Positions 12,388 to 36,601 of a stretch of DNA of 64,000 nucleotides are shown here, in pieces. The notes beneath the pieces were generated by a model. That model ran no database searches. It had not been told where the DNA came from and saw nothing but the letters and a program-made list of their open reading frames with translations. Position numbers and translations under genes: made by a program. How positions within the stretch are numbered: the stretch's first letter is position 1; every line of letters starts with the position of its first letter. Source of the stretch: Promethearchaeota archaeon (GTDB taxonomy: Archaea; Asgardarchaeota; Lokiarchaeia; Sigyniarchaeales; SOKP01); assembly GCA_019057795.1 (NCBI GenBank), contig JAHLWS010000021.1, forward strand, positions 1 through 64,000. Direction: 5' to 3'.

Positions 12388-13542
12388 TTAATCTGTAAAA
12401 TAGAGGTGCTCGTCAAATCCCGTTTCTGCTATAAGATCTTGACCAAGCTTTTGAATGACTTTTTTAGTTGGGTTTTGTAGAATATGTTTAGCAATATTAA
12501 CAACTTTAGTTAACTTTCCATCCGAAAATTCACGGATAATGTTATCGTATCGAGAAAAATCTAATCCAGCCGTATAAACGCCTGCGCTTCCATGCCCTGC
12601 CGTAGACGAAACTTGCCAGTGCTCTACTTTTAACTCTATTTTAGAAAGAAGTAAACTAGCTGTATACCATTCTATGAATAAATTCATCCGTTTTGATTTT
12701 CTTTTTGTTGATTTGAGCATCTTCAACGCTCGGTTTAATCTATCTGGGTGCATTTGTCTAAACACTTTTTGTTGGAGCTCGCTCATGTTATCTCTAACAT
12801 GCGCTTTTATTTGCTCAACGATTACTTCGACCTTTTGCGCTCTTTCTTCTGTTATATCTTGGTGAATTGATTGTATATGACGCGCAATTGTTTCGTTCAA
12901 ATCTTGACTTTGATCGATGGATGTTTCTTGATGGCTCGGTGGAGATGCTGAAGAACCTTGTTGGATTTCAGAAGGCATGCTATAAATTTCTCTCTGTTGT
13001 AGGTTAAAAAGAGCTTCTAATTTCGTAGGATCTTGTCTAACTTCGTTAAATCTTTTTTGGATATCCTCTCGAGAATATCCCATATTCATTAAGTAAAATG
13101 CAGCACTTGATAGTTGGTGTTCCAAAGCTTCCGAAGTATTGTAATTTCCTGTACCACCAAATTGTTCCCTTAACTGATCGTCTGCAAGCAAACTGATTTT
13201 CTCTTCGTTAATTTCATTTACTTTAAGAGAATTTATTTTAGTAAGTATGTGTTCGATTTGTTCGCTAGCTAAGTAGCTTAAGTTCCCTGTTGGTCCAACC
13301 ATATAGGAAATTTTTTCCATTTTTTTTAAAAGTTCGGCGACATCTTGCTGTGTTTTACCGTTTGAAACTATTAAAAAGTGCTCCAAGAATTTTTTGGTAA
13401 AGCCCGCAATTATAACAAGATTTTTCTCGTCAAATTTATTAAGATGGCTGGTCAATCCATTATCTTGAAATTCAGTAGGAAGATTAATGTTATAGACCAA
13501 TATATTATCTAATATCAAGTAAATATAATCTTCCTTATTCAT
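12388..13542 (-). CDS. Hypothetical protein with an internal UBA-like segment
   Basis: 384-aa ORF containing YLMNMGYSREDIQKRF and a low-complexity Q/S/P linker. Confidence 0.6.
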   Translation of the reverse strand: MNKEDYIYLILDNILVYNINLPTEFQDNGLTSHLNKFDEKNLVIIAGFTKKFLEHFLIVSNGKTQQDVAELLKKMEKISYMVGPTGNLSYLASEQIEHILTKINSLKVNEINEEKISLLADDQLREQFGGTGNYNTSEALEHQLSSAAFYLMNMGYSREDIQKRFNEVRQDPTKLEALFNLQQREIYSMPSEIQQGSSASPPSHQETSIDQSQDLNETIARHIQSIHQDITEERAQKVEVIVEQIKAHVRDNMSELQQKVFRQMHPDRLNRALKMLKSTKRKSKRMNLFIEWYTASLLLSKIELKVEHWQVSSTAGHGSAGVYTAGLDFSRYDNIIREFSDGKLTKVVNIAKHILQNPTKKVIQKLGQDLIAETGFDEHLYFTD

Positions 13543-13649
13543 AATAACCCTTAATAATCAAGAATTTTAGATATAAATATTTTTTTGACAACTTATTCAA
13601 TACAAAATTACTAATCTAATAAAATTAATCTAATAAATACTTTACATTA

Positions 13650-14126
13650 TCAATTTTTTTGATATTTTTTTGCTATTCTCCGCGCAAAATTCATTTGTTC
13701 TTTAGTCTCAAGACTGCATGGTCTATATTTTCGTATCCATCTTACGGGATCCATATGTTCGGGTATATATCCATTATTGGCACCCCATGCTACAATAAAT
13801 TGTCCGGTTCTCCCACATCCCGCAACACAATGAACGACGATTGATTCATTATTTTGTCTATGTTTCTCACAAATTACCAGAAAATCTTCTATTTGCTTTT
13901 CTGTTGGTAATCCATAATCAGGAACATTTATATGATAATAATTAAATCCGTTAGGGATATCTTTTCTGTTATCAAATTCCGAACAATTGATTATAACTGA
14001 GATTCCTTCTTTTTTGTATTTTTCAAAAACCGGCGGATCAGGCCACCAACTTGCTGCCATTTTTTCCTTAACAATCCATGTAAATGGTTGTGTTTTTTCA
14101 GGCATCCCACCTCTAGGCCAATACAA
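13650..14126 (-). CDS. Dual-specificity (Cys-based) protein phosphatase
   Basis: VHCVAGCGRTG CX5R loop, VPDYGLP acid loop, and RPCSLETKEQ. Confidence 0.9.
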   Translation of the reverse strand: MYWPRGGMPEKTQPFTWIVKEKMAASWWPDPPVFEKYKKEGISVIINCSEFDNRKDIPNGFNYYHINVPDYGLPTEKQIEDFLVICEKHRQNNESIVVHCVAGCGRTGQFIVAWGANNGYIPEHMDPVRWIRKYRPCSLETKEQMNFARRIAKKYQKN

Positions 14127-14342
14127 AGGACGAATATTTAATTACCTCTTACTTTCTATTTATTATTACTCATTAAATTCTAACAGTTTAACTCAACGAC
14201 AATGAAAAATAAAATTTCCTCTAATATTTTTTGTTATTCGAAAAGATATGTTGTATCTTTATCTCCTAATTTTAAATTTCTGACTTAATTAGAAAATAAA
14301 TAATATAATAATAAGAAAAAAAAAAAAGAATTTAAGATTTTT

Positions 14343-17300
14343 TTAGTATTCACTTCTTTTTTTACGCCGGTTTCTAATTGTTATAGCAGAAACTATACCT
14401 ATTGCTGCAAATATGAAGTAGAGGTTGTATCCAGGAATTACGGGCGGTGTTGGCTCCGGTTCCGGTTCCGGTTCTGGTTCCGGTTCCGGTTCTGGTTCTG
14501 GTTCCGGTGGGATTTGCACAACAACTTCGATGCAATTGGAAAGAGTATCACCATAGGCGTTATGTGCGACAACTATAAAGTAATAGGTTCCATTAGTATA
14601 ACCACTCAAAGCAAGAGAAAGATCTGTTATTCCATCTCCTAAAAGGGTTAAACTTCCATTGATTTCGGTAATAAGACCTGAATATTCATACACAGAGTAG
14701 GTAAGAGCTCCATCTGCACTTTCCCATGTTAAATCAAACGCACCATTATCATCCGGCGTTCCCGCATTAGATGATAGTTCAAAATCACCTGGTGATAGGT
14801 CTAAATAAGTAAATTCTACATTAGTATCGATGAAATCAAGAGTGTAATTCATACCACTACTACTTATAAAGGTACCATTCAACAATATACCCGTACTTTT
14901 CTCATACCATGCAATTCCACCTGGAACAGTTAAATCCTCTAATACCCATACTTCTACTGGACCATAACCTGGAAGATTATATATCAAATCATCAATAACA
15001 TTGAAGATATGCTCTTCTCCACCCATAGTAGCTATTGGGATATCATCACCTATATTGGTATCTGTAAATATCCAGCCAGGATCGTGATGTCCCACTCCGA
15101 AAAATACATCCCCCCAGACATCTGTCATTATTCTGGTAGTAGAATCTACATCATAAAAGCAATGATAATCATAACCTTCATCATCCAAGTAAATCCACCA
15201 ATCACCCTGAAATATAGATTCTGAGACATAAGAATATAAGAAATGGGAAGAACCTATCCATTCATCCATATATATGAAAGTATAATCTGTAAGCATACCA
15301 TCGAATAATTGACTGTCAACAATAGGTATTAACTCAGTTGCTATATTATTTTCTATATGGGTTTCACCAAGTACAGGAGGAGCATAAGCAGTGAAATTGT
15401 AGGTGTTATATTCAGTTGGAGTCCACATATAATTAATTGTTTCACTCGCACCAACAAGTAAACTTGAAATAGTAATTGAATTGACAATTAGGTCATCAAG
15501 ATATAAAAACAGATCAACGTTTATTTCATCATTTTCACCATTATTTATAACAGTCGCATTAATAGTGTAAGTATTACCAATTTCTGGATTGGTTGGAACT
15601 TCTAAAGAAACGCTTAATTCATGATCAAAGGAAATATAAGTAAATTCAACATTAGTATCTACGAAATCAAATGTATACCAACCCGATCCTCCAGCATAGT
15701 AAAACATTCCATTCAAGAGAATTCCAGTACTTTTTTCATACCAAGCAACTCCACCAGGAAGAGTTAAGTCTTCTAGCTCCCAAACCTCTATTAGTCCAAA
15801 ACCAGGTAGATCATAGATTAATTCGCCTGCTACGCTGAAAAGATGATCGCCTTTACCATCGGCAGCAATTAAAATTTCGTCACCTAAAGATACATCGGTA
15901 AAAATCCAAATAGGAGTATGAAATCCATTTCCAAATTGCCAACCGTCACCACCAGAATTCTCCATAATTCTTGTTTGGCTATCGACATCCCAATACATAT
16001 GACTAGGAGATCCTCCTTCATCCATATACCAATCAACATGAAAAATATCCCCTGAAACATAGGAATATATGAAATCTGAAGGTTTTACCTCACCAAAAAT
16101 TGTCCAATCATAACTAACGAACATTCCATCGAATAATTTAGTTTCTCTAATTGATAATAACTCAGTTGCGATATTGTTATCAATGTAAGACTCATCAGGT
16201 ACAGGTGGAGCATAAGCAGTGAAATTGTAGGTTTTATATTCGGTTGGAGTCCACATATAATTAATTGTTTCACTCGCACCAACAAGTAAACTTGAAATAG
16301 TAATTGAATCTACAAGTACTTCATCAAGATATAAAAACAGATCAACGTTTATTTCATCATTTTCACCAGTATTGGTGACTGTTGCATTAATGATGTAAGG
16401 ATTATCAATTTCAAGAAAGGTTGGAACCTCTAAAGAAACGCTTAAATCATGATCAAATGTCGCATATGTAAATAAAATTGAAAAATCATCAGTTAAATCA
16501 TTTAGACCCTGATATGAATTATAATAATCTGTATCTATGCCTAAATTTAATCCACATGTATATCCATTATAAGGATCGATATAGTCAAGATAATCATAAT
16601 TAAACACAATTTCGCCTGTATCGTATAAAACTACTTGAAATGAACCTAGTAAAGGGCCATCTATATGATATATATCTTGCCATTCTGCCACCCAATAAGT
16701 CCCAAATGATTGTACATAGATATGTCCTCCATAGGCGGGATATATATCATCCCAAAATGGAGCAATCATATAAGTATGTGTGGGATCTGCCGAGGGAAAG
16801 GGAACATTTGAATATTGCCAAGGTGTCGTATCAGTGAAACTAAGATATCCATTGGCACCTAAATATATAGTTGAAAAGGTGTCATCGTAGAATTGAAAAT
16901 TAAAGGGTAAAGCTATTGTAGCATATCCATCATCACTTAAAATAAGTTCTGTTCCACCAGAAGCGTCTATCCAACTATAAGGATATCCTGTATCCATAAT
17001 ATAATTTTGAAGATAGCTAATTGTTATTAACTCAGTTGCGATATTATTTCCTATATATGTCTCATCAGGTACAGGTGGAGCATAAGCAGTGAAATTGTAG
17101 GTCCTATATTCAGTTGGAGTCCACATATAATTAATTGTTTCACTCGCACCAACAGGTAAACTTGAAATAGGAATTGAATCAACAAGTACTTCATCAAGAT
17201 ACAAAAACAGATCAACGTTTATTTCATCATTTATGCCAGTGTTCGTAACAGTCGCATTAATAGTGTAAGTATTACCAATTTCACAATCTGTGGGATATTC

Positions 17301-18781
17301 TAAGGAAACTTTCAATTCATGATCTAAATCCATGAATGTACCGATTACATATCCTGGGGTTGTTTTAGGAACATCTGGTGACTCAGGTGTAATTTCTTGT
17401 AGAACTCCAGATATATATCTCTCAATACGGAAAGAAGAGATTATCCCAGGCGTGTTTGATGATCCTAATTCTAAATAAAATAAAACATCATTATTCGAGT
17501 CATAATAAGATTGGAACTCCGAAATATCTAAAGCCATAAACGAAGGAAATAGAGCAGTTGTATGTTCTTGATACTCAGGATTCAGTGTATTTAAAGGTGA
17601 ACCATACGGTCCAACTCCCAAGGTGACTATGTCATTCATCCTAGTGGGACAAGTACTAAATTCCCAAGTGGAAACCAAACTTGGGTGATAATCAATTCTA
17701 TCATCATAATATCCTATTTGGATATAACCATCCCCAAGCACTCCAATTTCTTTTAGTGTTTCGTAGGTCAACCAGTAAAAACCGCTTTCGCCCCAGCTAT
17801 CGCCCCATGAATTTACGACTCTAAACGCGCCAACATCACCATCATCCGTTATACTATCATCGAATCCAACAATACAATTAGCATGATTAATTGTTGAAGA
17901 ACTATATTCAGCAGAAGATATAATAAAATTATCAACAAATCCCTGATCATATCCATTAGCATCGATATTAAATGTCACTGGGGTTCCCCCCTCGACAAGA
18001 TTTTTAATTGTTGTGATCGTTGGATCTCCCAAATAGGAAAGCCAATTGAATTGTAGAGGTCTATGGAGTGGTGCTTCTCTCCATGCAGATTCATCACCCC
18101 AATTAGTGTAATCAGTGTCTGTATATGGTATTGTTTCCCAAGTGGCTGCGCCCCACTCTTCTAAAAGAAGCCCCGTCTCAATATGATGAGTACCGGACCC
18201 CTCATAGGTGAGTTTATTATAGGACCAAGCTGGACTCAGCAGATAAGCATTATTTCCAGAACTCGCATCCCACCCATAATCTTTTGCTTCTAAATAACCC
18301 ATTGAATAATAAACGCTTGCCCAAGAGGTGCAAGATCCTTGGCTACCTTGACTTCTTACAGGGGGAAAATAGATTTCTGAAGAAAGGTCATAAGCTGCTT
18401 TCGAATCTACTGGATTATTGGGGTCTTTAATCACATTTAAAATCATAATTTGCCCAACCGTCTTTTCCAACGCCTCTTCTGTTAGAGATTCAGCCCCAGT
18501 GCCCATCCCATTGATGATTTGGTCAGAAGCTTTACTGGAATCTGTGATTCTAATTTGTTTTTTCATTAATTCAACTTTTTCTTTTGTTAAAAACTCAGCA
18601 AAATATTTCAAACCATTTTCAGTATAGGTAAAAATTCCATCATTTCCAACATTACTGGATAGAGTAGATTCAATGTCTGTAGATTTGTAAAAAGTATTTA
18701 TAGTGCCTAAAGAAGAGAATACTAAGATAGATAAATATAATACCAAAAAGATTTTTTTTTTTTTAAATTCAAAAATTTCAT
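14343..18781 (-). CDS. Secreted C1A papain-family cysteine protease with CARDB repeats, nidogen-like domain, PE linker and Loki-CTERM-type anchor; start separated from the main frame by an A13 tract
   Basis: Catalytic motifs QGSQGSCTSW, HANCIVG and NSWG. Three INATVTNTG...YNFTAYAPPV repeats, IAPFWDD, and an IPGY + TM + RRKKR tail. The main open frame is 14343-18746. ATG 18781 with SD GAGGCG is out of frame by one base. Confidence 0.85.
14451..14507 (-). repeat. (PE)9 hexanucleotide repeat linker
   Basis: Tandem CCGGAA/CCAGAA units just before the membrane anchor. Confidence 0.95.
14810..17324 (-). repeat. Intragenic domain repeats: three ~297-bp CARDB-like units (about 15329-15626, 16159-16454, 17029-17324) and two ~828-bp larger units
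   Basis: Near-identical DNA, e.g. GGAGTCCACATATAATTAATTGTTTCACTCGCACCAACA occurs three times. The LFDGM...AWYEKSTGILLNG domain occurs twice. Confidence 0.9.
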
Positions 18782-18936: not shown

Positions 18937-19404
18937 ATGGTAAATAAAAAAAATTTTACCCCTTTCGGTTTAAGACGTTATCCTATCGTTCCATTAATAG
19001 GAGTTGGCGTTTTACTGATTCGCAATAATTCGTTATTGCTAGTTAAACGAAAATTCAATCCTGATGCGGGATATTGGTCCATTCCCGGAGGGCACTTAGA
19101 TCTCGGTGAAAGAGTACAATCTGCTGCCGAAAGAGAGGGTTTTGAAGAAACAGGCTTTAAGGTGAAGGTTACAAAATTAGCCGGCATAATAGATAAAATA
19201 ATGTACGATGATACCGGGAAGATCGAATACCATTATGTTTTGATTAATTATTTCGTAGAACAAATGGAGGGCGATCTAAATCAACCCCCCATACCAGATT
19301 CCGATGCGTTGGACGCTAAATTCGTGCCATTTGAAGAATTAAAAACTTATAAATTAACCGAATCTTTAATTGAGCTTTTAAAACAACTAAAATTGGGATA
19401 CTAA
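18937..19404 (+). CDS. NUDIX hydrolase (ADP-ribose pyrophosphatase-like)
   Basis: Nudix box GGHLDLGERVQSAAEREGFEETG and YHYVLINY. Confidence 0.9.
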   Translation: MVNKKNFTPFGLRRYPIVPLIGVGVLLIRNNSLLLVKRKFNPDAGYWSIPGGHLDLGERVQSAAEREGFEETGFKVKVTKLAGIIDKIMYDDTGKIEYHYVLINYFVEQMEGDLNQPPIPDSDALDAKFVPFEELKTYKLTESLIELLKQLKLGY

Positions 19405-21136: not shown

Positions 21137-22456
21137 TTGCCCACATTAATGAAAATCGCTCGAGATGGTAAAATCACCAAAGAAATGGAGTTAGTTGCAA
21201 AAAAAGAACAAGTAGATGTAGAATTCCTCCGAAAAGGAATCGCAAAAGGCCGTATTATTGTTCCAAAATCCAATAAACGCGATATCGAACCTATTGGCAT
21301 CGGTGAAGGTTTGTTAGTAAAAATTAACGCCAATATAGGCTCCAGCAAGCGAGTGTGTGATATTAACGAAGAATTAGAAAAAGCCAAGATCGCTGTAAAA
21401 TATGGGGCAGATACCGTCATGGACTTAAGCACCGGAGTAACCGAGGACGATGTGAAAACCATTCGAAAACAAATTTTAAAAGAAATTAAAGTCCCAATAG
21501 GAACGGTTCCTATTTACCAATCCGCGTTAAGAGCGTTAGAAAAAAAAGGAGCTATTATAAACTTTGACGAAGATGACCTCTTTAACGTAGTAGAAGAACA
21601 GGCCAAAGAAGGCGTGGACTTTTTTACGATTCATGTTGGAATTACGAAAGAGATAATAAATTACCTAAAAGATCATCCGAGAACTATGGGAGTAGTATCT
21701 CGCGGAGGGACTTTTTTAGCCGCATGGATACTTGAGAACGATTTAGAAAACCCATTTAATCGAAATTACGATTATTTATTAGATATGGCTAAGGAGTATG
21801 ATTTCACTCTCTCACTTGGAGACGGCATGAGGCCTGGAAGTATATTTGATTCCACTGATTACGCTCAGATTCAAGAACTTATGGAAATATCTAAATTAGT
21901 AAAGCGCGCTTGGGTACATAATGTTCAAGTAATGGTGGAAGGTCCAGGGCATATACCCGCTAATGAGATCGAACGCAACATCAAAATAATGAAATCTTTA
22001 TGCAATAATGCACCTTTTTATGTTTTAGGACCACTTGTGACCGATATCGCTCCAGGTTACGATCACCTGGTAAGCGCTATTGGGGGAGTAATGGCAGGAT
22101 TAGCTGGTGCCGATTATCTCTGTTATGTTACGCCCTCTGAACATTTAGCATTACCCAATAAGGAAGAAGTTAAAAGAGGAACAATTGCTTGTAAAATAGC
22201 AGCTCATGCAGTAAATATCGCGAAATACGGTAAGAGGGCATCAGATTGGGATTACAAAATGGATATTGCCCGAAAAAACCTAGATTGGGAAGGAATGATA
22301 AAATACTCAATCGATCCAGAATTATCTCGTGAGATTCATTATAGAAATGGGAGTGTTGGCGATGATGATGATGTATGCAGTATGTGTGGCGAATTTTGCG
22401 CGATAAAAATCTTAAAGGACGCTTTGGAAAAAAAAGCTTCAAAAAATATATTATAA
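21137..22456 (+). CDS. thiC: Phosphomethylpyrimidine synthase
   Basis: KINANIG, GADTVMDLSTG, SRGG, LGDGMRPG, EGPGH, YVTPSEHL and C-terminal CSMCGEFC. Confidence 0.92.
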   Translation: MPTLMKIARDGKITKEMELVAKKEQVDVEFLRKGIAKGRIIVPKSNKRDIEPIGIGEGLLVKINANIGSSKRVCDINEELEKAKIAVKYGADTVMDLSTGVTEDDVKTIRKQILKEIKVPIGTVPIYQSALRALEKKGAIINFDEDDLFNVVEEQAKEGVDFFTIHVGITKEIINYLKDHPRTMGVVSRGGTFLAAWILENDLENPFNRNYDYLLDMAKEYDFTLSLGDGMRPGSIFDSTDYAQIQELMEISKLVKRAWVHNVQVMVEGPGHIPANEIERNIKIMKSLCNNAPFYVLGPLVTDIAPGYDHLVSAIGGVMAGLAGADYLCYVTPSEHLALPNKEEVKRGTIACKIAAHAVNIAKYGKRASDWDYKMDIARKNLDWEGMIKYSIDPELSREIHYRNGSVGDDDDVCSMCGEFCAIKILKDALEKKASKNIL

Positions 22457-22464
22457 ATCTAATT

Positions 22465-23871
22465 CTAAGATACTATTTCTATAATTTTACTGAGTTTTTC
22501 TATCATATCTTTTGAATTTTTACTAAATAATCTAATTATCGGTTCCTTCCCCATTGCTCCTTTATCCCAAATAATATCTGGTATTTTACCTTTACTAGCA
22601 ATACTTTCTTTAATTAACCATTGCATAGTTGAAAATTCTTGTTTTTTAATCTTTTCCGGTTGATCTTCTCTGATTATCTCCTGTAATTCTAAATCAGTGT
22701 TTTGCTGAATTAAATCTATCCAGTTTGGATTATATTTAAGATTCATTACGTAATTAATTGAGTTATCGAATTCTTTTGCCGAAAGTATCAATCGAGCAGT
22801 ATGATCTGTGACACCAAACTTTATTTCTCCGGAAGCTTGTGGATAACCATTGATAATTGTAATTCTACCTTCAATACCCGCGATGTCCTCTTTTATAGTA
22901 GCGTTAGGTAGGGACCCAGATATATTCATTCTAACTTCAGGAATTAATTTGCTAAATTTTTTCAATCTGGAGATAAAATTGTAAATCTCCTTAATTTGAT
23001 TTATAACTTCCACTCTTTCTTCTGAAATAGTTAGATCAATTACTTTACCTTTATTGGGTAATTCAACAAACTTCTGAAATTTAGCATCAAAAAAACTTTC
23101 TGCTTTTTCAATAGCCATAGCTAATGGATTTCCTCTAGCAAGAAAAGCAGTTATAGCAGAAGAAAAAACACATCCCGTTCCGTGGACATTTCCATTATCC
23201 AAAAAAGATAGTTTTGGCTTCTGATATAATGTAAATTCATAATTTTTATTGGAACCTATTCCTTTACTAATACATACTAGATCGAAAATCTCTCCCTGTT
23301 TAGTTCCTGCACTTTTAATAACAACTGCTTTCTCCGTATCCAATGCCTGATTTTCAGAATATAACTTTTTTACCAATATTATTGCTGCTTCTTTAAGTTC
23401 AGCAATATTTTCTATAGTTTTATTTGATAAATCTCGATTCGCATAAAAACTGGCTTCATTTATATTTGGTGTAAGGATTTTTATGTACGGAAACAAACTT
23501 CTTTCTATTTCTAATTCGAATCCTTCACTCGAGAGCCTTTCACCCGCGCTAGAAATACAAACAGGGTCTAAAACAACAATTAAATCGTGTTGTCTTACTA
23601 CATCTACGATAATGTCTAATGTTTTGGCATCTGGTATCATCCCTATCTTTACAAATCTAACAGGATAAGAAGTAAAAATAGCATCTAGCTGTTTATTTAA
23701 ATCATCTGAAAGAGATTTATATCCATAAAATTCTGTTGCTGATTGATAAGTAATAGCCGTTATTACCGAAAAAGGGTGTACTCCACACCTATCAAATGTT
23801 CTAATGTCCGCTTGAATTCCTGCTCCACATGTAGAGTCTGAACCTGCAATAGTTAAACAAAAAAGTTTCAT
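22465..23871 (-). CDS. thiDN: Bifunctional HMP/HMP-P kinase - thiamine-phosphate synthase (ThiDN)
   Basis: IAGSDSTCGAGIQAD and HGTGC in the ThiD part. LIPEVRMNI, AGIEGRI and GKEP in the ThiN part. Confidence 0.88.
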   Translation of the reverse strand: MKLFCLTIAGSDSTCGAGIQADIRTFDRCGVHPFSVITAITYQSATEFYGYKSLSDDLNKQLDAIFTSYPVRFVKIGMIPDAKTLDIIVDVVRQHDLIVVLDPVCISSAGERLSSEGFELEIERSLFPYIKILTPNINEASFYANRDLSNKTIENIAELKEAAIILVKKLYSENQALDTEKAVVIKSAGTKQGEIFDLVCISKGIGSNKNYEFTLYQKPKLSFLDNGNVHGTGCVFSSAITAFLARGNPLAMAIEKAESFFDAKFQKFVELPNKGKVIDLTISEERVEVINQIKEIYNFISRLKKFSKLIPEVRMNISGSLPNATIKEDIAGIEGRITIINGYPQASGEIKFGVTDHTARLILSAKEFDNSINYVMNLKYNPNWIDLIQQNTDLELQEIIREDQPEKIKKQEFSTMQWLIKESIASKGKIPDIIWDKGAMGKEPIIRLFSKNSKDMIEKLSKIIEIVS

Positions 23872-23897: not shown

Positions 23898-24473
23898 TTA
23901 ATTAACTCTATCATACGCCCATTTGGCCTGATCTTTTAAACCTATGGCTTCATAGGATTTTCCAAGATATAAAAACCCTTCTGGATAGTCATATTTTTCT
24001 TTTACTAATTTAGTTAATAAGTTAATTGACATATCATAACGACCTCTCAAGTAATTAATCTTTCCCTTTAAAAACAAAAGGTTTTGACTTTTTTGATTTG
24101 AAGTGGTATCGTTATCATGTAAATCTAACCTTGATAGAGCATACTCGTATTCTTTCGCATCCATTAATACCTCAATAGATTCAATAAATTTCAGAAATAT
24201 CATTTTTTCAGCAATTTTCCCCATTTGTTTGATTTTTTCTTGTTTTAGTTCACTTTCTAAAGCTTCTTGTTTTTCTTGCTCTTTTTGCTGAATAAAATCT
24301 TTAAAGCCTTCAATAACGTGATTTGAGTACGGCTCTCTACATAAAGGACAGTTTGAAGCGTGAAGCAACCATTCTTTCAAGCAATCGGTATGAGTGGGAT
24401 GTCCGTTAGGGCACTCCTGAGAAGAATCTACTCCTTCAATAATTTCCAAATGACAAATAATACAAGTAGCCAT
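23898..24473 (-). CDS. RING-H2 zinc finger + coiled coil + TPR protein (candidate E3 ligase)
   Basis: CIIC-x13-CPNGHPTHTDC-x3-W-x6-CPLCR, followed by C-terminal TPRs (GFLYLGKSYEAIG). Confidence 0.8.
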   Translation of the reverse strand: MATCIICHLEIIEGVDSSQECPNGHPTHTDCLKEWLLHASNCPLCREPYSNHVIEGFKDFIQQKEQEKQEALESELKQEKIKQMGKIAEKMIFLKFIESIEVLMDAKEYEYALSRLDLHDNDTTSNQKSQNLLFLKGKINYLRGRYDMSINLLTKLVKEKYDYPEGFLYLGKSYEAIGLKDQAKWAYDRVN

Positions 24474-24545
24474 AGCAATCAGAAAACTATTTAATAAAAA
24501 TTTTATAATAATATAAAATTATTACTTTTAAACCTAGGTTTTTAT

Positions 24546-24577
24546 TAATCTTGAATCCATAATAATCTTGAATCCAT
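24546..24577 (+). repeat. 15-bp tandem direct repeat in the divergent promoter region
   Basis: TAATCTTGAATCCAT at 24546-24560 and 24563-24577, ending just before ATG 24579. Confidence 0.9.
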
Positions 24578-24578
24578 C

Positions 24579-26165
24579 ATGTCTATAAATAAAAAACGAC
24601 TTTTTAATGAACTTCTTACTAACTTTTTGCTTATTAATGAAGATGTAGAGGCTCTAATTGTATCTGATCGCGAAGGTTTTATTATAGCTGGTCAAAAAAA
24701 AGCAAGCACTGATATGGAATTAGTATCTGTTTTAACCGCATTAATAAATCCACTTTTAGAAAGAATGCGAGAAGAATTTGCCTTTAAAAAGTTTGGATCA
24801 GCTAGTTTTGACACCGAAAAAAATCGATTGCTCTTTATTTCTATAGACGAGAATATCACTCTTAGCGTAGTTTTAGACGTTTTAGCTTCTGTTGATAATA
24901 TTAGCCCATATGCTTATTTTCTAGCAGAAAAAACTGCTCAAATCATATTTGCAAACGAAGGCGATTTAATTCAAGTTAATATACCGAATTTTGAAACAGA
25001 ATCTACTACTTCTGATAGTACTGGTAGAATAAAAGAACAAATATACCAACTCCGTTTAGATTCGGGAGGAATATACAAATTTAAATTTATAATAATCGGC
25101 GATAGTTCAGTGGGAAAAACTTCCATTATAAGAAGGTTTGTTGAAAATAAATTTTCTCTCGATTATCGGGCAACCTTAGGGCTTAATGTGTTAGCTCACT
25201 CAATTAAATTTTATGGAAATGAAGTATCTTTATCACTTTGGGATGTAGGCGCACAAGATTACTTTAAACGCTTTAGAAAGACTTATTATATGGGCGCGCA
25301 AGCTGCTTTCATCGTGTTCGATGTTTGTAAAAGAGATTCCTTTGTAAATGTGAAAGTATGGTACAAAGAACTAGAAGATTTTCTCGATAAAAAAAATTTT
25401 CCAATAGTAATTGTAGGTAATAAAATAGATTTAGCAGATCAGAGAAGCGTCACATACCAAGAGGGTATTGAGCTAGGTGAAGAGCTCAAAAAGGAGAATA
25501 TTGAAGGCCACTTCTCTTACATTGAAACTAGCGCATTAACCGGTGAAAATGTGGAAGATGCGTTTAGCTTAATAGCTTACCATTATATAATGAAGAGCAA
25601 AGAGAGAGAGGAGCAAAAGTTAAAAGAGAGCTTAATGGATCAAATCAATTCGTTATTAAATAAAAGAGGAAAATTAACCCTCTCTTTTATTACTGAAAAC
25701 CCATACTGGAGCCCCGGATTGCAGATCCTAAATGATGTGAATATATTATGTGAGTGTGAAAAACTAATAGGTGATAAAGATAAAAGATTGTATAAATACT
25801 CCAACGGGCTAATTATTAAGAATTTTTCATTAGATAACATAGATATTAAAGATTCTGATGGAGTTTTCGTTATATTTGAAGCTCGAGGTAAGAAGCATAT
25901 CGAACCAAAGTGGAAAGAAGTTGTTATTAATATAATCCAAAACCTTGGCGAAAATAAAGTTGCACTAATAGGTATAAGAGTATCTGGTCAGAGTGATTGG
26001 TCAAATATTATAGAAGAATTTAATGTTAACGAATATCTAGAAAAAAGTATGATCTCTCTTTTATTTTTTAGGATTGGTTTCGAGTATCGCTTGGAAATCT
26101 ACGACCAACTTGAAGTAATGTTTAGCACCATCATAAACCTCAAAAATTTTCTCAAATATTTCTAA
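24579..26165 (+). CDS. Roadblock-domain + Rab-like small GTPase + degenerate G-like domain (paralog 1)
   Basis: Roadblock DVEALIVSDREGFIIAG, G1 GDSSVGKTS, G2 ATLG, G3 WDVGAQ, G4 NKID, G5 TSAL. Confidence 0.88.
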   Translation: MSINKKRLFNELLTNFLLINEDVEALIVSDREGFIIAGQKKASTDMELVSVLTALINPLLERMREEFAFKKFGSASFDTEKNRLLFISIDENITLSVVLDVLASVDNISPYAYFLAEKTAQIIFANEGDLIQVNIPNFETESTTSDSTGRIKEQIYQLRLDSGGIYKFKFIIIGDSSVGKTSIIRRFVENKFSLDYRATLGLNVLAHSIKFYGNEVSLSLWDVGAQDYFKRFRKTYYMGAQAAFIVFDVCKRDSFVNVKVWYKELEDFLDKKNFPIVIVGNKIDLADQRSVTYQEGIELGEELKKENIEGHFSYIETSALTGENVEDAFSLIAYHYIMKSKEREEQKLKESLMDQINSLLNKRGKLTLSFITENPYWSPGLQILNDVNILCECEKLIGDKDKRLYKYSNGLIIKNFSLDNIDIKDSDGVFVIFEARGKKHIEPKWKEVVINIIQNLGENKVALIGIRVSGQSDWSNIIEEFNVNEYLEKSMISLLFFRIGFEYRLEIYDQLEVMFSTIINLKNFLKYF

Positions 26166-26265
26166 TTATAAATTTAAATAGCTACTTTTAAAAACAAGTT
26201 ATATTATAATAATGATAAATACAAATTCCGTATTGAATTCAATATTATTTTAAAGGTAGATTTGA

Positions 26266-27822
26266 TTGATTATTAACAGAAATCAACTTTTTAACGAGAT
26301 TTTAAATAATTTTTTAGAAAGATTTACAGATGTTGAAGCAATTATCGTTTCCGATATCGAAGGATTTGTTATTGCGGGAGAAAAAAGAAAAGATATTGAT
26401 GTCGAAATTGTATCTGTTTTAACTACACTAATAAAACCGATTTTAGAAAGGATACGAAATGATTTCTCTTTTAAGAAATTTGGAACTGCTGCGTTTGATA
26501 CAGACGAGTATCGTCTCCTATTTGTCACTATTGACGAAGAGAGAATATTAAGTATAATTTTTAACAGTATGGCGTCAGTAGAAAAGGTCTCACCATATAC
26601 ATACTTTTTAGCTGAGAAATCAGCTCAAATATTGAACGCCCAAACGGGCGATTTAGTTCAATTGGCAATTCCCGATTTTGATAATGAAGCTGAAAGACAT
26701 GAAAGGTTAAAAGCATCAATATGTCAATCGGAATTCATTGAATGCGGTAATTATGCCTTTAAGTTCGTAATTGTTGGTGATCATACGGTTGGAAAAACAT
26801 CATTGATTCGACAATTTGTAGAGCGCAAGTTTTCACACGATTATAGAGCCACTATTGGCCTAAATATTTTAGCACATAATTTTGACTTTCAAGGAAACGA
26901 AATTTCAGTTTCGCTCTGGGATATTGGTGCCCAACAATATTTTAAACGTTTTCGCAAGATATACTATGCTGGCGCGGAGGCTGCGTTCATCGTTTTTGAT
27001 CTTACTAAAAGAGAATCTTTTGAAAATGTAAAGAGTTGGTATGAAGAAATATCTGAACTTATCAAAGAAATAGATATTCCCTTAGTGGTTATTGGTAACA
27101 AAAGCGATTTGACCGAAAATCGATTAATATCTACCGAAGAAGGAGAAGAATTAGCCAAATCGTTATCTGAACATGGTTCATCCTATATAGAAACGAGTGC
27201 ACTTACGGGAAATAATGTTAAAGACGCTTTTGAATTAATTGCTTATCATTATATCGTAAAAAGTAAAAAAAAGGAAAAGGATAGAATCAAAGATGGTTTA
27301 ATAGAAACGATTGAATCCGCTTTAAAAGAGTTGATTATATTGGAATTAACTTTTATTACTTATAGCTTTAGTTGGAACCCTGGATTCCATACTATATTGG
27401 ATATCGAAAAACTAGGAGATTTTTCTAAGATAAAAGATAGTAGCGAAGAAAAATTATTCACTTATAAGAACGGAGTGATCTTAAGTAGTTATCTTTACGA
27501 TAAATTTAACCTTTCTAATTCTGACGGTATTTTTTGTATATTCGACGCTAGAGATAAAGAACACATCGATCCTAAGTGGAAGGAGGTTTTAATTCAAATT
27601 ATTCAAAAAATTAGAAAAAAACGAACAATTATCGTTGGAGTTCGAGTTTCTGAGGACCAAAACTGGTCCCAATTAATGGAAGAACTTGTTATTGACGAAG
27701 ATTTAGAAGAAAAGGTTGTATCGATAGTGTTTCTCAAAATTGGTTCTGATTACAGAGAAAAAATACACGATTACCTTAAGCTCTGGTTAAACGCAATAGT
27801 TAACACGAGAAACTTAAAATAA
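26266..27822 (+). CDS. Roadblock-domain + Rab-like small GTPase + degenerate G-like domain (paralog 2)
   Basis: DVEAIIVSDIEGFVIAG, GDHTVGKTS, ATIG, WDIGAQ, NKSD and TSAL. Collinear with paralog 1. Confidence 0.88.
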   Translation: MIINRNQLFNEILNNFLERFTDVEAIIVSDIEGFVIAGEKRKDIDVEIVSVLTTLIKPILERIRNDFSFKKFGTAAFDTDEYRLLFVTIDEERILSIIFNSMASVEKVSPYTYFLAEKSAQILNAQTGDLVQLAIPDFDNEAERHERLKASICQSEFIECGNYAFKFVIVGDHTVGKTSLIRQFVERKFSHDYRATIGLNILAHNFDFQGNEISVSLWDIGAQQYFKRFRKIYYAGAEAAFIVFDLTKRESFENVKSWYEEISELIKEIDIPLVVIGNKSDLTENRLISTEEGEELAKSLSEHGSSYIETSALTGNNVKDAFELIAYHYIVKSKKKEKDRIKDGLIETIESALKELIILELTFITYSFSWNPGFHTILDIEKLGDFSKIKDSSEEKLFTYKNGVILSSYLYDKFNLSNSDGIFCIFDARDKEHIDPKWKEVLIQIIQKIRKKRTIIVGVRVSEDQNWSQLMEELVIDEDLEEKVVSIVFLKIGSDYREKIHDYLKLWLNAIVNTRNLK

Positions 27823-27829
27823 TAAAATA

Positions 27830-28894
27830 TTACTTTTTCAACCTATTTTTTAATAGTTTGGCGATTAAATCGCCCATTTCCTCGGTTGAGAAAGTTTTTA
27901 ATTTTTCACTTTTTATATCTACAGTTCTACCTTCCTTAAGGGCTTCTTCTACTGCTTTATCAACTTCGTTTCCTATTTCAAGTGAATTAAACGACTCCTG
28001 CAGCATTAATTTTACGCTTAATATAGTACCAATAGGGTTAGCTATGCCTTTTCCGGCGATATCAAGCGCAGAACCGTGAATGGGCTCATACATAGATACT
28101 TTTCCAGGATTAATATTCCCGCTGGAAGCCATCCCTAAACTCCCTATAAGAAATGCTCCTTCGTCACTAATTATGTCTCCAAACATATTTCCCGTTACAA
28201 CCGTTTGAAATTTGTATGGTGCTCGAATAAGCCATTGACAATACGCGTCAACGTAAATATCTTCTTTTTGGATTTTTGGATAGTTTTCACCTATTTCGTG
28301 AAATATTTTGCGCCACAATTGACTAGTCATTAAAAGGTTTGCTTTATCAACAGAAGTAATTTTGCTGTGCCCCTTTTTTTTGGCAAATTCAAACGCATAT
28401 TTTATTATTCGTTCACAGCCTTTTCTGGTGTAAAGCATTAGATTCTGAGCAGAATTCTCGTCTATATTCCCTATATTTTTATAGAGACCTTCAGTATTTT
28501 CCCTTACAAAAGTGATATCTATCCCACTACCTATAAATTCGTCTTTCAATGGACATTTCTCGCGAAGTATGTCGTATAGTTTAATTGGTCTTAAATTAAC
28601 GTATAAATCTAATCCTTGTCTTATCTTCATTATTGCGCTTTCCGCTACTCCAAAAGGTAAATCAGGTAATCCTATGGCGCCAAATAATAACGCATCGGAA
28701 TTCTTAATCGTTTCAAACGATTGTTCAGGAAGGTTGTTCCCAAATTTTTTCCATACTTCCCCTCCCGCTGGTGCTTCTTTGAATTCAAAATCAAACTCAG
28801 TATAACTCGAAATGACTTCGAGGACTTTTACTCCTTCGTTTACAACCTCAGGACCTACGCCGTCCCCCCTGCATACAGAAACGATTTTTTTCAT
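27830..28894 (-). CDS. leuB: 3-isopropylmalate dehydrogenase / beta-decarboxylating dehydrogenase
   Basis: GDGVGPEV, LYVNLRP, RENTEGLY, VDKAN, NMFGDIISD and EPIHGSA. Exact substrate is uncertain. Confidence 0.7.
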   Translation of the reverse strand: MKKIVSVCRGDGVGPEVVNEGVKVLEVISSYTEFDFEFKEAPAGGEVWKKFGNNLPEQSFETIKNSDALLFGAIGLPDLPFGVAESAIMKIRQGLDLYVNLRPIKLYDILREKCPLKDEFIGSGIDITFVRENTEGLYKNIGNIDENSAQNLMLYTRKGCERIIKYAFEFAKKKGHSKITSVDKANLLMTSQLWRKIFHEIGENYPKIQKEDIYVDAYCQWLIRAPYKFQTVVTGNMFGDIISDEGAFLIGSLGMASSGNINPGKVSMYEPIHGSALDIAGKGIANPIGTILSVKLMLQESFNSLEIGNEVDKAVEEALKEGRTVDIKSEKLKTFSTEEMGDLIAKLLKNRLKK

Positions 28895-33270: not shown

Positions 33271-33564
33271 CTAATCTTCGACGCGAGTAAAATACCATTT
33301 ATACAATAAAGCTTGGTTTCCAGCGAATATTCCGACTCTATCGCCATCGTTTACCTTTTTATTAAATCCAGAGTACACTCCATTTACAAAGATGTGGCTG
33401 GTTTCACTTTCTTTAATCGAAAATTTCTTTAAAATGTCAGAAACTCGCTCTATTCCTTCAGTGCTTATTTCTGCGTTAGTTGGGCTCTTTGGAGATTTTT
33501 GTTTTGATATTTTCTTTGCTAAATCACCGAATAGTTTGACTAAAATTGTCATCTTTTTAGGCAC
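33271..33564 (-). CDS. MoaD/ThiS-like beta-grasp protein lacking C-terminal Gly-Gly
   Basis: VKLFGDL...IFVNG...VNDGDRVGIF. Abuts the AOR stop codon. Confidence 0.75.
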   Translation of the reverse strand: MPKKMTILVKLFGDLAKKISKQKSPKSPTNAEISTEGIERVSDILKKFSIKESETSHIFVNGVYSGFNKKVNDGDRVGIFAGNQALLYKWYFTRVED

Positions 33565-35310
33565 TTAAGATTCAAAGACGCTATCTATCTCATCGTCTGT
33601 TACATCGAACACTTCATTGTGTGGTGGCAGTGGTTCTTTTAGAAAGAATTCAGGCAATCTATCGTCTGCGCTAGTAAATCCTGCTGCCTTATTGAACTTT
33701 AGTTCTGTATCAATAATTGACTTTCCTAGTCCCGCGATGTCGTTAACAGTTAGATTAACTCCTAATACTCCATTTACGGATTCTACCATTCCTTCTAAAC
33801 CTTCGGGGATATCTAATACGGCAAAAGCGGTAAATAGACAATAACCCGCAGCATCAATTACCGCTGTTGCGAACTGTAAATTCCGCGACAATTCTGCTTT
33901 TTTAGGGTCTCTAGGATCTGCGGTACCACCCACTCCCATAATTTCGGTTGCTATTGCGTACCCAGCCGTGTGGTCTGCTCCCATTGGAGTTGTTGCGTAT
34001 GTTACACCAATACCTTTAATTGCTCTAGGATCGTAAGCCGGTAGCGCTTGGTTCTTTACTACTGGGACTCTTGTTACGCCCATAGCTTTTCCAGTAAATC
34101 CCGTACCATTTGCTAATATCCTTCCAGTTGGAGTCTTCTTTCTAACTTCTTCCATGAGCTTTAACGCTCCCTTTGCGTCTCCAAATTCGACTAATCCACC
34201 TTCCATCGCTACGGCAATTGCGTTTCCCATTTCAATCGTGTCAAGTCCTAAGTCGTTACAAGCACGATTTAGTTCACCAACATCATCTAAGTTGTAAATG
34301 CTACAATTCGCTCCTAAGGCCCAGACAGATTCATATTCTAAAACCCCAACCGGATCTTTACCGCCCGGTTTTGTCCACACTTCAGAGCATTGAATAACGC
34401 AACCTGGGCTACAGAAATGAGGACGAACGCCGCCTCTCTTTTTGATTTCTTCCGCCTTTTTCTCACCTGAAATGTTTTCAACTCTATCATCTTGACCAGA
34501 TGAGAAGTTTCTCTGGGGTAACCCTCCTGATTCGTTAATAATATTAACTAAAACACCCGTACCATAAGTGTTTAGCGCACCTCCAGGTTTTGTCACGTCG
34601 TGAGATGTAAGTGCGTCCCTTAACTTTTTCGCCCCTTGTTTGAAAACTTCTAGGTTTTTAATTTCAACGCCTGGTGCTCCAGCATCGTCAACAACTATAA
34701 ATTTCAATCCTTTTGACGCCATAACGGCTCCAAGTCCACCCCGTCCTGCGTACCTACTAGGTAATCCTTCGGGGTCGTTAAAACAGACCCCAGAAGCTGT
34801 CCCTAACATTTCTGCAGCGATTCCACAACTACTAATGCTTACCTTATCTCCGAATTCCTTATAAAGGTCTTTGTAGACTTGATATAGTCCTTTTCCAGAC
34901 CACTTATTTGCATTTGTAAATTCAATGCCATCGTTAGTTATTTTTAGAAGGTAATAGTCCTTTCCTTCGTGCTTCCCTTCCACGATTATTGCAGCGATTT
35001 GTAATCGAGCTAACATTTGAGCGAACGTAGTACCTGCGTTTGCTTCCTTAATTCCTCCCGTTAAGGGGGATTTTGCCCCTACTGATAGTCTTCCTGATGT
35101 AGGCGCTGAAGTTCCTGTAACAATACCGGGTGCAAATACAAGTTTATTATTTGGACCCAAAGGATGGCAAAGAGGGGGTACTTCGTTTAATACAATCGTC
35201 GAAGTAAGCGAACGACCTCCAAGAGCCATGTAATCTTGAGGAAAATCCTCAAATTTGGCTTCAAGTTTGTTCATATTTACTCTTAATATTCTTTTTGGCA
35301 TAAATTTCAC
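33565..35310 (-). CDS. aor: Aldehyde:ferredoxin oxidoreductase (tungstopterin AOR family)
   Basis: KSPLTGGIKEANAG, GRGGLGAVMASKGLK, CSPGCVIQC, EYES and DLGLDTI. Confidence 0.92.
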   Translation of the reverse strand: MKFMPKRILRVNMNKLEAKFEDFPQDYMALGGRSLTSTIVLNEVPPLCHPLGPNNKLVFAPGIVTGTSAPTSGRLSVGAKSPLTGGIKEANAGTTFAQMLARLQIAAIIVEGKHEGKDYYLLKITNDGIEFTNANKWSGKGLYQVYKDLYKEFGDKVSISSCGIAAEMLGTASGVCFNDPEGLPSRYAGRGGLGAVMASKGLKFIVVDDAGAPGVEIKNLEVFKQGAKKLRDALTSHDVTKPGGALNTYGTGVLVNIINESGGLPQRNFSSGQDDRVENISGEKKAEEIKKRGGVRPHFCSPGCVIQCSEVWTKPGGKDPVGVLEYESVWALGANCSIYNLDDVGELNRACNDLGLDTIEMGNAIAVAMEGGLVEFGDAKGALKLMEEVRKKTPTGRILANGTGFTGKAMGVTRVPVVKNQALPAYDPRAIKGIGVTYATTPMGADHTAGYAIATEIMGVGGTADPRDPKKAELSRNLQFATAVIDAAGYCLFTAFAVLDIPEGLEGMVESVNGVLGVNLTVNDIAGLGKSIIDTELKFNKAAGFTSADDRLPEFFLKEPLPPHNEVFDVTDDEIDSVFES

Positions 35311-35644: not shown

Positions 35645-36601
35645 TTGGTTTTTATTTTTCTTAAAATTGTGACCATAAAGAATAAGAATCCAAGAAGAAA
35701 TAAACTTTACAATGATGGAGAAAGAAAGGAATGTGGAGAATGTCATGAGATCAAATCTCATGAATATTTTCGAAAAAGAAAAGGGCGTTTAAGGTCCATT
35801 TGTGAAGATTGCAGACAAAAAATGTATGCAATTAATAACTTTAAGAAACAAATTAAAATAATTACCTTACTATTTGATAAAAGATGTCACAATTGCCATA
35901 GTGGTCTTCAAATTTTACCTGCGATGGAATTTCATCACTTGAATCCGTACTCCAAAAAGTATTCATGGAGAGACTTAAGAGGAAGAAATGTAGATGAGAT
36001 AATTAGAATTATTAAAAACGAGAATCTTCAAGTTTTATGTAGAAACTGTCATAGTTGTGCAGAAATAACTAATTATGACAAATTTAAGGAGATTATCCTA
36101 TCAGAGAAATTATCAATTAATAATGTTGGAGAAATTGATGCCATAGTTTATGAAGAGATCAAAAGTAATATTAAATATCGATCTGAAAGTCTTAAAGGAG
36201 CTCAACATAGAGCAAGAATTAAATATAGAATTAAGAAATGGATCAAAAAGAGGATAATTATTGAAATCTTATATAATGGTGCTTGCATTGGTTGTCGAAA
36301 CATAAGAATTAATGACAAATTACCTGCTTTAGATTTTCATCATCGAAACCCAAAGATAAAAGAATTTAAATGGGAAAAGCTATCTAAACTTCCTATAAAT
36401 AATATAATTACCATTTTAAAGAATGAAGATTGTATTTGTTTGTGCAAAAATTGCCATTCCTTAATCCATTCAATAAATTTTGAACAATTTATTGATGAAA
36501 TCTTTGAAAAGGAGAATGCATTAGTGATAGAATTAGTGGAAGAAAGCTATTTGCAACTAAAAGAAAACATTAATAACTTCTCCTTTAAAGAAAAACTATA
36601 A
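35645..36601 (+). CDS. Protein with N-terminal Zn finger and two HNH-type nuclease domains
   Basis: CGEC...CEDC; CHNC..EFHHLNP..NLQVLCRNCH; CIGC..DFHHRNP..CLCKNCH. Start is uncertain (GTG 35669 possible). Confidence 0.75.
   Translation: MVFIFLKIVTIKNKNPRRNKLYNDGERKECGECHEIKSHEYFRKRKGRLRSICEDCRQKMYAINNFKKQIKIITLLFDKRCHNCHSGLQILPAMEFHHLNPYSKKYSWRDLRGRNVDEIIRIIKNENLQVLCRNCHSCAEITNYDKFKEIILSEKLSINNVGEIDAIVYEEIKSNIKYRSESLKGAQHRARIKYRIKKWIKKRIIIEILYNGACIGCRNIRINDKLPALDFHHRNPKIKEFKWEKLSKLPINNIITILKNEDCICLCKNCHSLIHSINFEQFIDEIFEKENALVIELVEESYLQLKENINNFSFKEKL

Follow-up and report, generated by a model that had tools for sequence, protein, structure and literature searches.

The window considered here is a stretch of 64,000 nucleotides from a Promethearchaeota archaeon of the Lokiarchaeia (assembly GCA_019057795.1, contig JAHLWS010000021.1, positions 1 to 64,000 of the forward strand). 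At 23898–27822 it carries a gene for a RING-H2/TPR protein and, divergent from it, two tandem genes for GTPases with a roadblock domain, referred to below as paralogs A and B. An initial annotation, made from the letters alone, had described a RING-H2 plus TPR gene, a 105-bp divergent gap and two collinear roadblock-GTPase paralogs, and these open reading frames and their coordinates hold. All three genes are kept in more than 100 related genomes and are therefore real genes; their homologs carry the names Lokiarchaeota or Promethearchaeota. The family to which this genome belongs is called the source family and the other large family of the same order the second family; there are in addition two small outgroup families. 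The features of the locus are the following.

23898–24473, minus strand: RING-H2/charged coiled coil/TPR gene, open reading frame of 191 residues, probable single-chain E3 ligase
24339–24464, minus strand: RING-H2 finger (residues 4–45) with eight zinc ligands, W35 and P43 invariant
23901–24185, minus strand: TPR region (about residues 97–191), C-terminal AKWAY-type motif kept
24474–24578, no strand: divergent intergenic region, 105 bp, AT-rich
24579–26165, plus strand: paralog A, 528 residues, roadblock, Rab-like G domain and predicted pseudoGTPase domain
24579–24953, plus strand: roadblock domain of A, three-helix type, from model and weak profile matches
25071–25592, plus strand: Rab-like G domain of A with G1, G2 Thr, NKxD and SA motifs intact
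25242–25256, plus strand: G3 motif DVGAQ of A, Ala in place of the Gly of DxxG
25611–26144, plus strand: third domain of A, predicted small-GTPase fold with N-terminal helix
26266–27822, plus strand: paralog B, 518 residues, TTG start, same three domains, G3 motif DIGAQ
27277–27819, plus strand: predicted pseudoGTPase domain of B, 37% identity with its counterpart in A

Paralogs A and B are separated by 100 bp and are 51% identical and collinear from end to end.

The RING-H2 finger has the ligand spacing C4-C7-C21-H25-H28-C31-C42-C45, which is the C3H2C3 pattern, and none of the 62 orthologs compared departs from its eight zinc ligands and the E2-contact residue W35; the Arg that follows the final RING Cys is not conserved, being present in 15 of them. 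The protein scores above the cut-off of Pfam zf-RING_2, and profile matches of the RING in the PDB are Hrd1, RNF165/Ark2C and Arkadia. The TPR region, of about 2.5 repeats, is weak when the single protein is searched and clear with a profile. Of the 154 genomes of the order, 133 have the RING-TPR gene as a single copy; outside the order 1 of 246 genomes gave a match, and a search of the ESM Atlas with the RING protein returned its own cluster only. In most genomes without a RING match thiC and the locus GTPase are missing as well, or a contig ends there, which fits assembly gaps. The source genome has two ubiquitin and two UQ_con (E2) matches and several ThiF (E1-like) matches, with one ubiquitin-E1-E2 cluster on contig C43 and an E2 gene on C26; the ubiquitin, E1-like and E2 genes lie on contigs other than that of the RING gene. 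Archaeal RING-H2 proteins work as E3s (PMC5654768; bioRxiv 10.1101/2023.07.25.550441), e.g., srfp of Caldiarchaeum (PMC5654768) and the Helarchaeia RING on UEV-Vps23 (bioRxiv 10.1101/2023.07.25.550441), with which the present protein shares the C3H2C3 pattern, the E2-contact Trp and the presence of ubiquitin, E1 and E2 genes. Unlike these it has a coiled coil and TPRs of its own, and its gene is located away from the ubiquitin genes and beside thiamine genes. It is, as judged from its sequence, probably an E3 ligase. Since the RING residues are conserved and a ubiquitin, E1 and E2 set is found in the genome, the RING would most likely recruit a ubiquitin-loaded E2 and the TPRs the substrate. 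No paper describing an Asgard protein with RING and TPRs was found in a literature search that missed most subscription papers. In one genus (L064:8801-10900, L071:4212-6239, L066:7487-9199) the RING-TPR protein is extended at its N-terminus by a long segment, and in two of these three proteins this segment opens with another RING-like finger, after which comes a coiled coil.

The N-terminal domain of the GTPases (residues 1–125) is a roadblock. In the predicted model it has the order helix, two strands, helix, three strands, helix; Robl_LC7 is matched by 11 of 28 members, below the curated cut-off, and the sole PDB match is an entry named Roadblock/LC7 domain protein (E 0.003), so that the sequence scores are weak but consistent and the predicted fold pattern is clear. 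Residues 165–338 form a G domain which in the two paralogs scores 152 and 158 bits with Pfam Ras vs. 22 bits or none with Gtr1_RagA, and of which the best PDB profile matches are Thor-Rab and Rab11 and the best fold matches Rab6/Rab8. Model, Pfam and PDB matches thus bear out the roadblock and Rab-like calls of the initial annotation. Among the 62 orthologs G1 (GxxxxGK[ST]), the G2 Thr, G4 (NKxD) and G5 (SAx) are invariant or nearly so, and the canonical DxxG of G3 is replaced by DxGAQ, with Ala in 54 and Gly in 7; one outgroup family has the canonical DFGGQ. DxGAQ is absent from every other readable G domain of the source genome, which has 59 small G domains. The equivalent change in Ras, G60A, impairs switch II, and the exchange of Gly for Ala in G3 may likewise alter or slow switch II here. 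At least six of the proteins with these G domains are roadblock-GTPase fusions, and such a fusion is therefore ordinary in the source genome.

The third domain, to which the initial annotation had given no name, has its elements in the same order as a G domain but contains no P-loop Lys, DxxG, NKxD or SAx, i.e., G1, G3, G4 and G5 are lost, and it has invariant residues of its own (W-x-P-x-x-Q, D-A-R and G-x-R). A Pfam search with it gave no match. A profile of 40 third-domain sequences has Rnd1 as top PDB match (E 0.003). For the AlphaFold model (predicted local distance difference test score 89.9) the top ten Foldseek matches are all Arf/Sar GTPases (E about 1e-5), and in VIA the model is closest to HodArfR1, an Asgard Arf (Z 13.7, root-mean-square deviation 3.8 Å over 168 residues), with Arf-type proteins in ranks 1–5 and the best non-GTPase at Z 11.2. 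From these predictions the third domain is very probably a pseudoGTPase. It could also be a generic flavodoxin-like alpha/beta domain that is not derived from a GTPase: its sequence is only about 10% identical to those of GTPases, Z values of 9–11 are reached in VIA by flavodoxin-like and receiver domains too, Pfam has no family for it, and its profile matches the protein's own G domain in register but weakly (probability 19%, E 0.0012). Nevertheless, small GTPases were ranked first independently by Foldseek, VIA and the sequence profile, and the elements align in order with those of the neighboring G domain, which leaves the flavodoxin-like alternative distinctly improbable. With a conservation of 60% (67–69% for the other domains) and its own invariant residues the third domain is being maintained and is not in decay. 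When 1.84 billion representatives were searched, it was found in 48 clusters, in which all proteins longer than 250 residues have a G domain ahead of it. It would bind no nucleotide and act as a fixed protein-binding module. In this respect it resembles the class i pseudoGTPases such as the AAGAB psGD, which have the GTPase fold without G motifs and are likely protein-binding modules (PMC12490416); it differs from the AAGAB psGD in being fused behind an active-type G domain and a roadblock, and in an archaeon, and in that its non-binding is predicted. No paper describing an Asgard pseudoGTPase came up in the literature search, which likewise missed most subscription papers.

The tandem pair of A and B occurs in two large genera, where it is found at 50 of the 64 loci with room for it. 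At the locus ten other genera of the source family have a single GTPase gene, and each genome of the two outgroup families contains one such gene. In a tree made with a quick method and no bootstrap the second copies group together as a single clade (support 94) within the source family. The sequences thus suggest that B arose by duplication within the source family and that a single copy at the locus is ancestral. There are also loci at which only B adjoins the RING gene (L135, L143, L144, L169), two of them from genomes that are 99% complete and contain one match each (G095, G099), and in several genomes A and B are separated by inserted genes. The initial annotation had inferred that the two proteins heterodimerize through their roadblocks; because single-copy and B-only lineages exist, an obligate A/B heterodimer is unlikely. 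From what is known of the family, dimerization via the roadblocks is likely, and since many lineages are single-copy the dimer must work as a homodimer in these, any heterodimer being derived and optional. The roadblocks would accordingly form homodimers in single-copy lineages; in genomes with both A and B, homodimers or, optionally, heterodimers would form. The roadblocks may supply the G domains with a built-in regulatory platform of the MglB/longin type.

Paralogs with roadblock, G and pseudoGTPase domains are also found away from the locus. Some of them, in one lineage and 822–896 residues long, have in addition a coiled coil and a TPR array (L204:1510-4194 in P0127, the TPRs of which were confirmed by Pfam, and L205:4687-7155 and 12526-15216 in G086). 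Off-locus paralogs of L095, L096, L098, L099, L182 and L205 adjoin open reading frames of 1200–2400 residues that are surface-protein-like, off-locus paralogs are often flanked by a pair of conserved unknown genes (about 740 and 417 residues), and G065 has a tandem paralog pair of its own at an off-locus site.

Roadblock-GTPase fusions in Asgard archaea have been described (Tran et al., 2024, PMC10933270; for a summary for Lokiarchaeum see PMC4917890). Paralogs A and B are a variant of these with an added pseudoGTPase domain. They share with the known fusions an N-terminal roadblock on a small G domain, the source genome having at least four other, two-domain ones, and they differ from them in the extra C-terminal domain, in the G3 motif DxGAQ and in not being found in the second family. 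The initial annotation had regarded the locus as a candidate proto-Rag-like module, and this is not supported. As in Rag/Gtr and the Rag-like Loki proteins, G domain and roadblock are in one chain and paralogs lie side by side in some genomes. Unlike in Rag/Gtr, the G domain is Rab-like rather than of the Gtr1/RagA class, the roadblock is N-terminal rather than C-terminal, a third domain is present and there is no fixed two-paralog system. By class and domain order A and B are therefore not Rags. The real Rag-like Loki proteins are a different group: in the strain MK-D1 two Rag-like genes form an operon, and their products are predicted to heterodimerize via the roadblocks (Tran et al., 2024, PMC10933270), and the solved structures of LokiRagO (PDB 8yl2) and LokiRagM (9m28) were among the matches of our structure searches. 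These proteins are better candidates for a proto-Rag than A and B. No paper describing LokiRagO or LokiRagM was found, the search again missing most subscription papers. With MglA/MglB the fusions have in common that a roadblock acts on a small GTPase, as an analogy of function (PMC10933270); there, however, the two are separate proteins and the G domain is of another class.

The genes that flank the three-gene locus in the window and recur in relatives are the following.

22465–23871, minus strand: thiD-thiN fusion, starting 26 bp past the stop of the RING gene on the same strand
21137–22456, plus strand: thiC, member of the conserved block
18937–19404, plus strand: NUDIX hydrolase, kept by thiC in the source and second families
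27830–28894, minus strand: leuB-like gene (isocitrate/isopropylmalate dehydrogenase family), convergent with B, frequently though not invariably kept

The initial annotation had proposed to compare the gene order with that of relatives, and the RING/GTPase junction passes this comparison. In the source family the RING and GTPase genes are head to head at 74 of 75 assessable loci, and in ten further genera at 19 of 19; altogether the junction is kept in 12 of the 13 genera of the family, with a gap of 100–273 bp. In close relatives TATA-like runs lie about 25–30 bp ahead of each start, and the gap probably contains back-to-back promoters. Compared with these relatives, 24474–24578 exhibits short local duplications and one deletion, the total length being nearly constant (102–105 bp). 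On the other side, thiD/thiN is located 3′ of the RING gene on the same strand at 68 of 69 loci and thiC is near at 50 of 51, with the NUDIX gene and often leuB rounding out the block. In some lineages (L129, L133, L137 and others) thiD and thiN are split, a stand-alone thiN following the RING gene and a different thiD lying on the opposite strand. The NUDIX protein encoded next to thiC in both families is a candidate hydrolase of the thiamine pathway, although the source genome is without a true Thi4; an unidentified NUDIX for ADP-thiazole has been noted (PMC4215014).

Of the 14 genomes of the second family, which probably includes the cultured Loki strains, 13 have the RING gene, and none of the 14, three of which are single-contig, was matched by the third-domain profile. 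All 13 loci, from 7 genera, have a thiamine gene within about 3 kb of the RING gene. Which gene it is varies: a thiamine ABC transporter (TIGR01254 above the cut-off) with thiamine pyrophosphokinase (TPK), thiC/thiD, Thi4 or ThiW. At 2 of the 13 loci a different Rab-like GTPase lies just upstream of the RING gene; it is not close to A and B. In L177 the order RING-thiD-thiC is kept without the GTPase, and in G038, outside the two big families, the RING and GTPase genes are on different contigs with other neighbors on both sides. The contact between RING and thiamine genes thus spans two families and that between RING and GTPase genes one. An unannotated P-loop-like protein of about 232 residues without Pfam or NCBIfam match adjoins ThiW (L072:10146-10844, L067:7769-8470), and its homolog in the source genome (C73:112655-113224) also does so.

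The explanation that we favor, and consider rather probable, is that the locus consists of two units in one conserved block and not of one dedicated module. The first unit would be the Loki-specific roadblock-GTPase-pseudoGTPase protein, duplicated in two genera, and the second the probable E3, whose gene borders a thiamine cluster in the source and second families alike. Its head-to-head junction with the GTPase gene is limited to the source family, where it is kept along with thiD/N, thiC, NUDIX and often leuB. As a guess from gene order, the thiamine proteins are a better-supported substrate of the E3 than the GTPases. The initial annotation had thought that the thiamine genes could be coincidental, whereas they are the most widely kept neighbors of the RING gene. 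Several points weigh against two separate units. Within the source family the GTPase/RING junction is the best kept, being direct in 95 of 96 cases vs. 92 of 95 for RING-thiD, 56 of 83 for thiD-thiC and 36 of 70 for leuB (some genomes are counted twice in these numbers), and conserved divergent gene pairs are often co-regulated. The RING-thiD contact is broken in L124, and outside the two big families RING genes occur without thiamine neighbors (G038, G043), being apart from the GTPase there as well. Off-locus paralogs fused to TPR arrays exist (P0127, G086). Since the genomes are kin and not independent, each contact may go back to one ancestral event, so that neither proves function, and the folds are predictions throughout.

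A doubtful but conceivable alternative goes further and makes the RING-TPR protein a working part of thiamine metabolism, which would ubiquitylate ThiC, ThiDN or thiamine transporters for turnover under an ample supply of thiamine or once the enzymes are spent. Indeed, the RING gene precedes thiD/thiN by 24–130 bp on the same strand at nearly all source-family loci, it stays by thiamine genes whichever set is kept (synthesis, ABC uptake plus TPK, or ThiW), and it is its 3′ end that faces them while its 5′ neighbors vary. In the second family, however, the RING gene is at most loci convergent rather than co-transcribed with the thiamine genes, no one thiamine protein adjoins it in all genomes, and G038 and G043 have no thiamine neighbors. 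Gene loss within one ancestral cluster would result in the same picture without function, and no paper tying a RING E3 to thiamine in archaea was found. As a special case, an E3 that clears spent suicide Thi4 was dropped, the source genome lacking a true Thi4 and the one neighboring Thi4 lacking the Cys.

Less probable still, and on balance unlikely, is a family-restricted module in which the GTPases, dimerized through their roadblocks, either serve the head-to-head RING-TPR E3 as substrates or regulate it, and are co-regulated with it from the shared gap. Besides the junction kept in 12 genera, it is in favor of such a module that B took the place next to the RING gene where A was lost, that TPR arrays are fused to off-locus paralogs, that the source genome encodes ubiquitin, E1-like and E2 proteins, and that another Rab-like GTPase is found upstream of the RING gene at the two second-family loci. 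On the other hand, the RING gene is kept in 13 of 14 second-family genomes, where the GTPase was not found, and another family has the GTPase but no RING match in 3 of 4 genomes (63–88% complete). The thiamine neighbors are equally conserved in the source family and more widely outside it. The TPRs fused to the off-locus paralogs are only generically like those of the RING-TPR protein (18 bits vs. 14 for other TPR proteins) and come without a RING, a heterodimer is not required and the GTPases are not Rag-like. A complex prediction of the RING-TPR protein with paralog A (matched alignments of 62 rows) gave a score of 0.06, which lies below the 0.32 mark and is uninformative either way. Of the partnership with the adjacent E3 put forward in the initial annotation, the probable RING E3, the ubiquitin, E1 and E2 genes and the family-wide junction stand. 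As the second family retains the RING gene and no such GTPase was found in it, a dedicated partnership cannot be order-wide; it is possible within the source family. That the GTPase dimer and the RING-TPR E3 together form one GTP- and ubiquitin-dependent switch over the neighboring thiamine enzymes, parallel and not ancestral to Rag signaling, is highly improbable. Beyond the thiamine and module readings, what is left of the probability goes to a conserved block whose members are not direct partners.

Three further features of the window should be mentioned. At 14343–18746 there is an open reading frame of 1467 residues which appears to contain a region resembling papain-like cysteine proteases, beta domains in repeated copies, a Pro-Glu repeat and, at the C-terminus, a membrane anchor. 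At 33271–35310 a putative MoaD/ThiS-like small protein adjoins an aldehyde:ferredoxin oxidoreductase-like gene. At 35645–36601, directly before an Sm/Lsm gene, lies a Cys/His-rich open reading frame of 318 residues with two HNH-like repeats, possibly a mobile endonuclease.

To our knowledge, partners are known for hardly any small GTPase or E3 of the Asgard archaea. A proto-Rag reading would add little, because Rag-like Loki proteins have already been described and A and B are not among them. In the three-domain protein a single chain would comprise both an archaeal pseudoGTPase and a regulator fused to it. The link between RING and thiamine genes is a new lead, and the place of the RING-TPR protein by these genes provides a concrete shortlist of substrates. 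If the link proves to be true, the protein could be the first archaeal ubiquitin ligase tied to a metabolic pathway, and if GTP and ubiquitin indeed acted together as a thiamine switch, this would be prokaryotic nutrient signaling from eukaryote-type parts.

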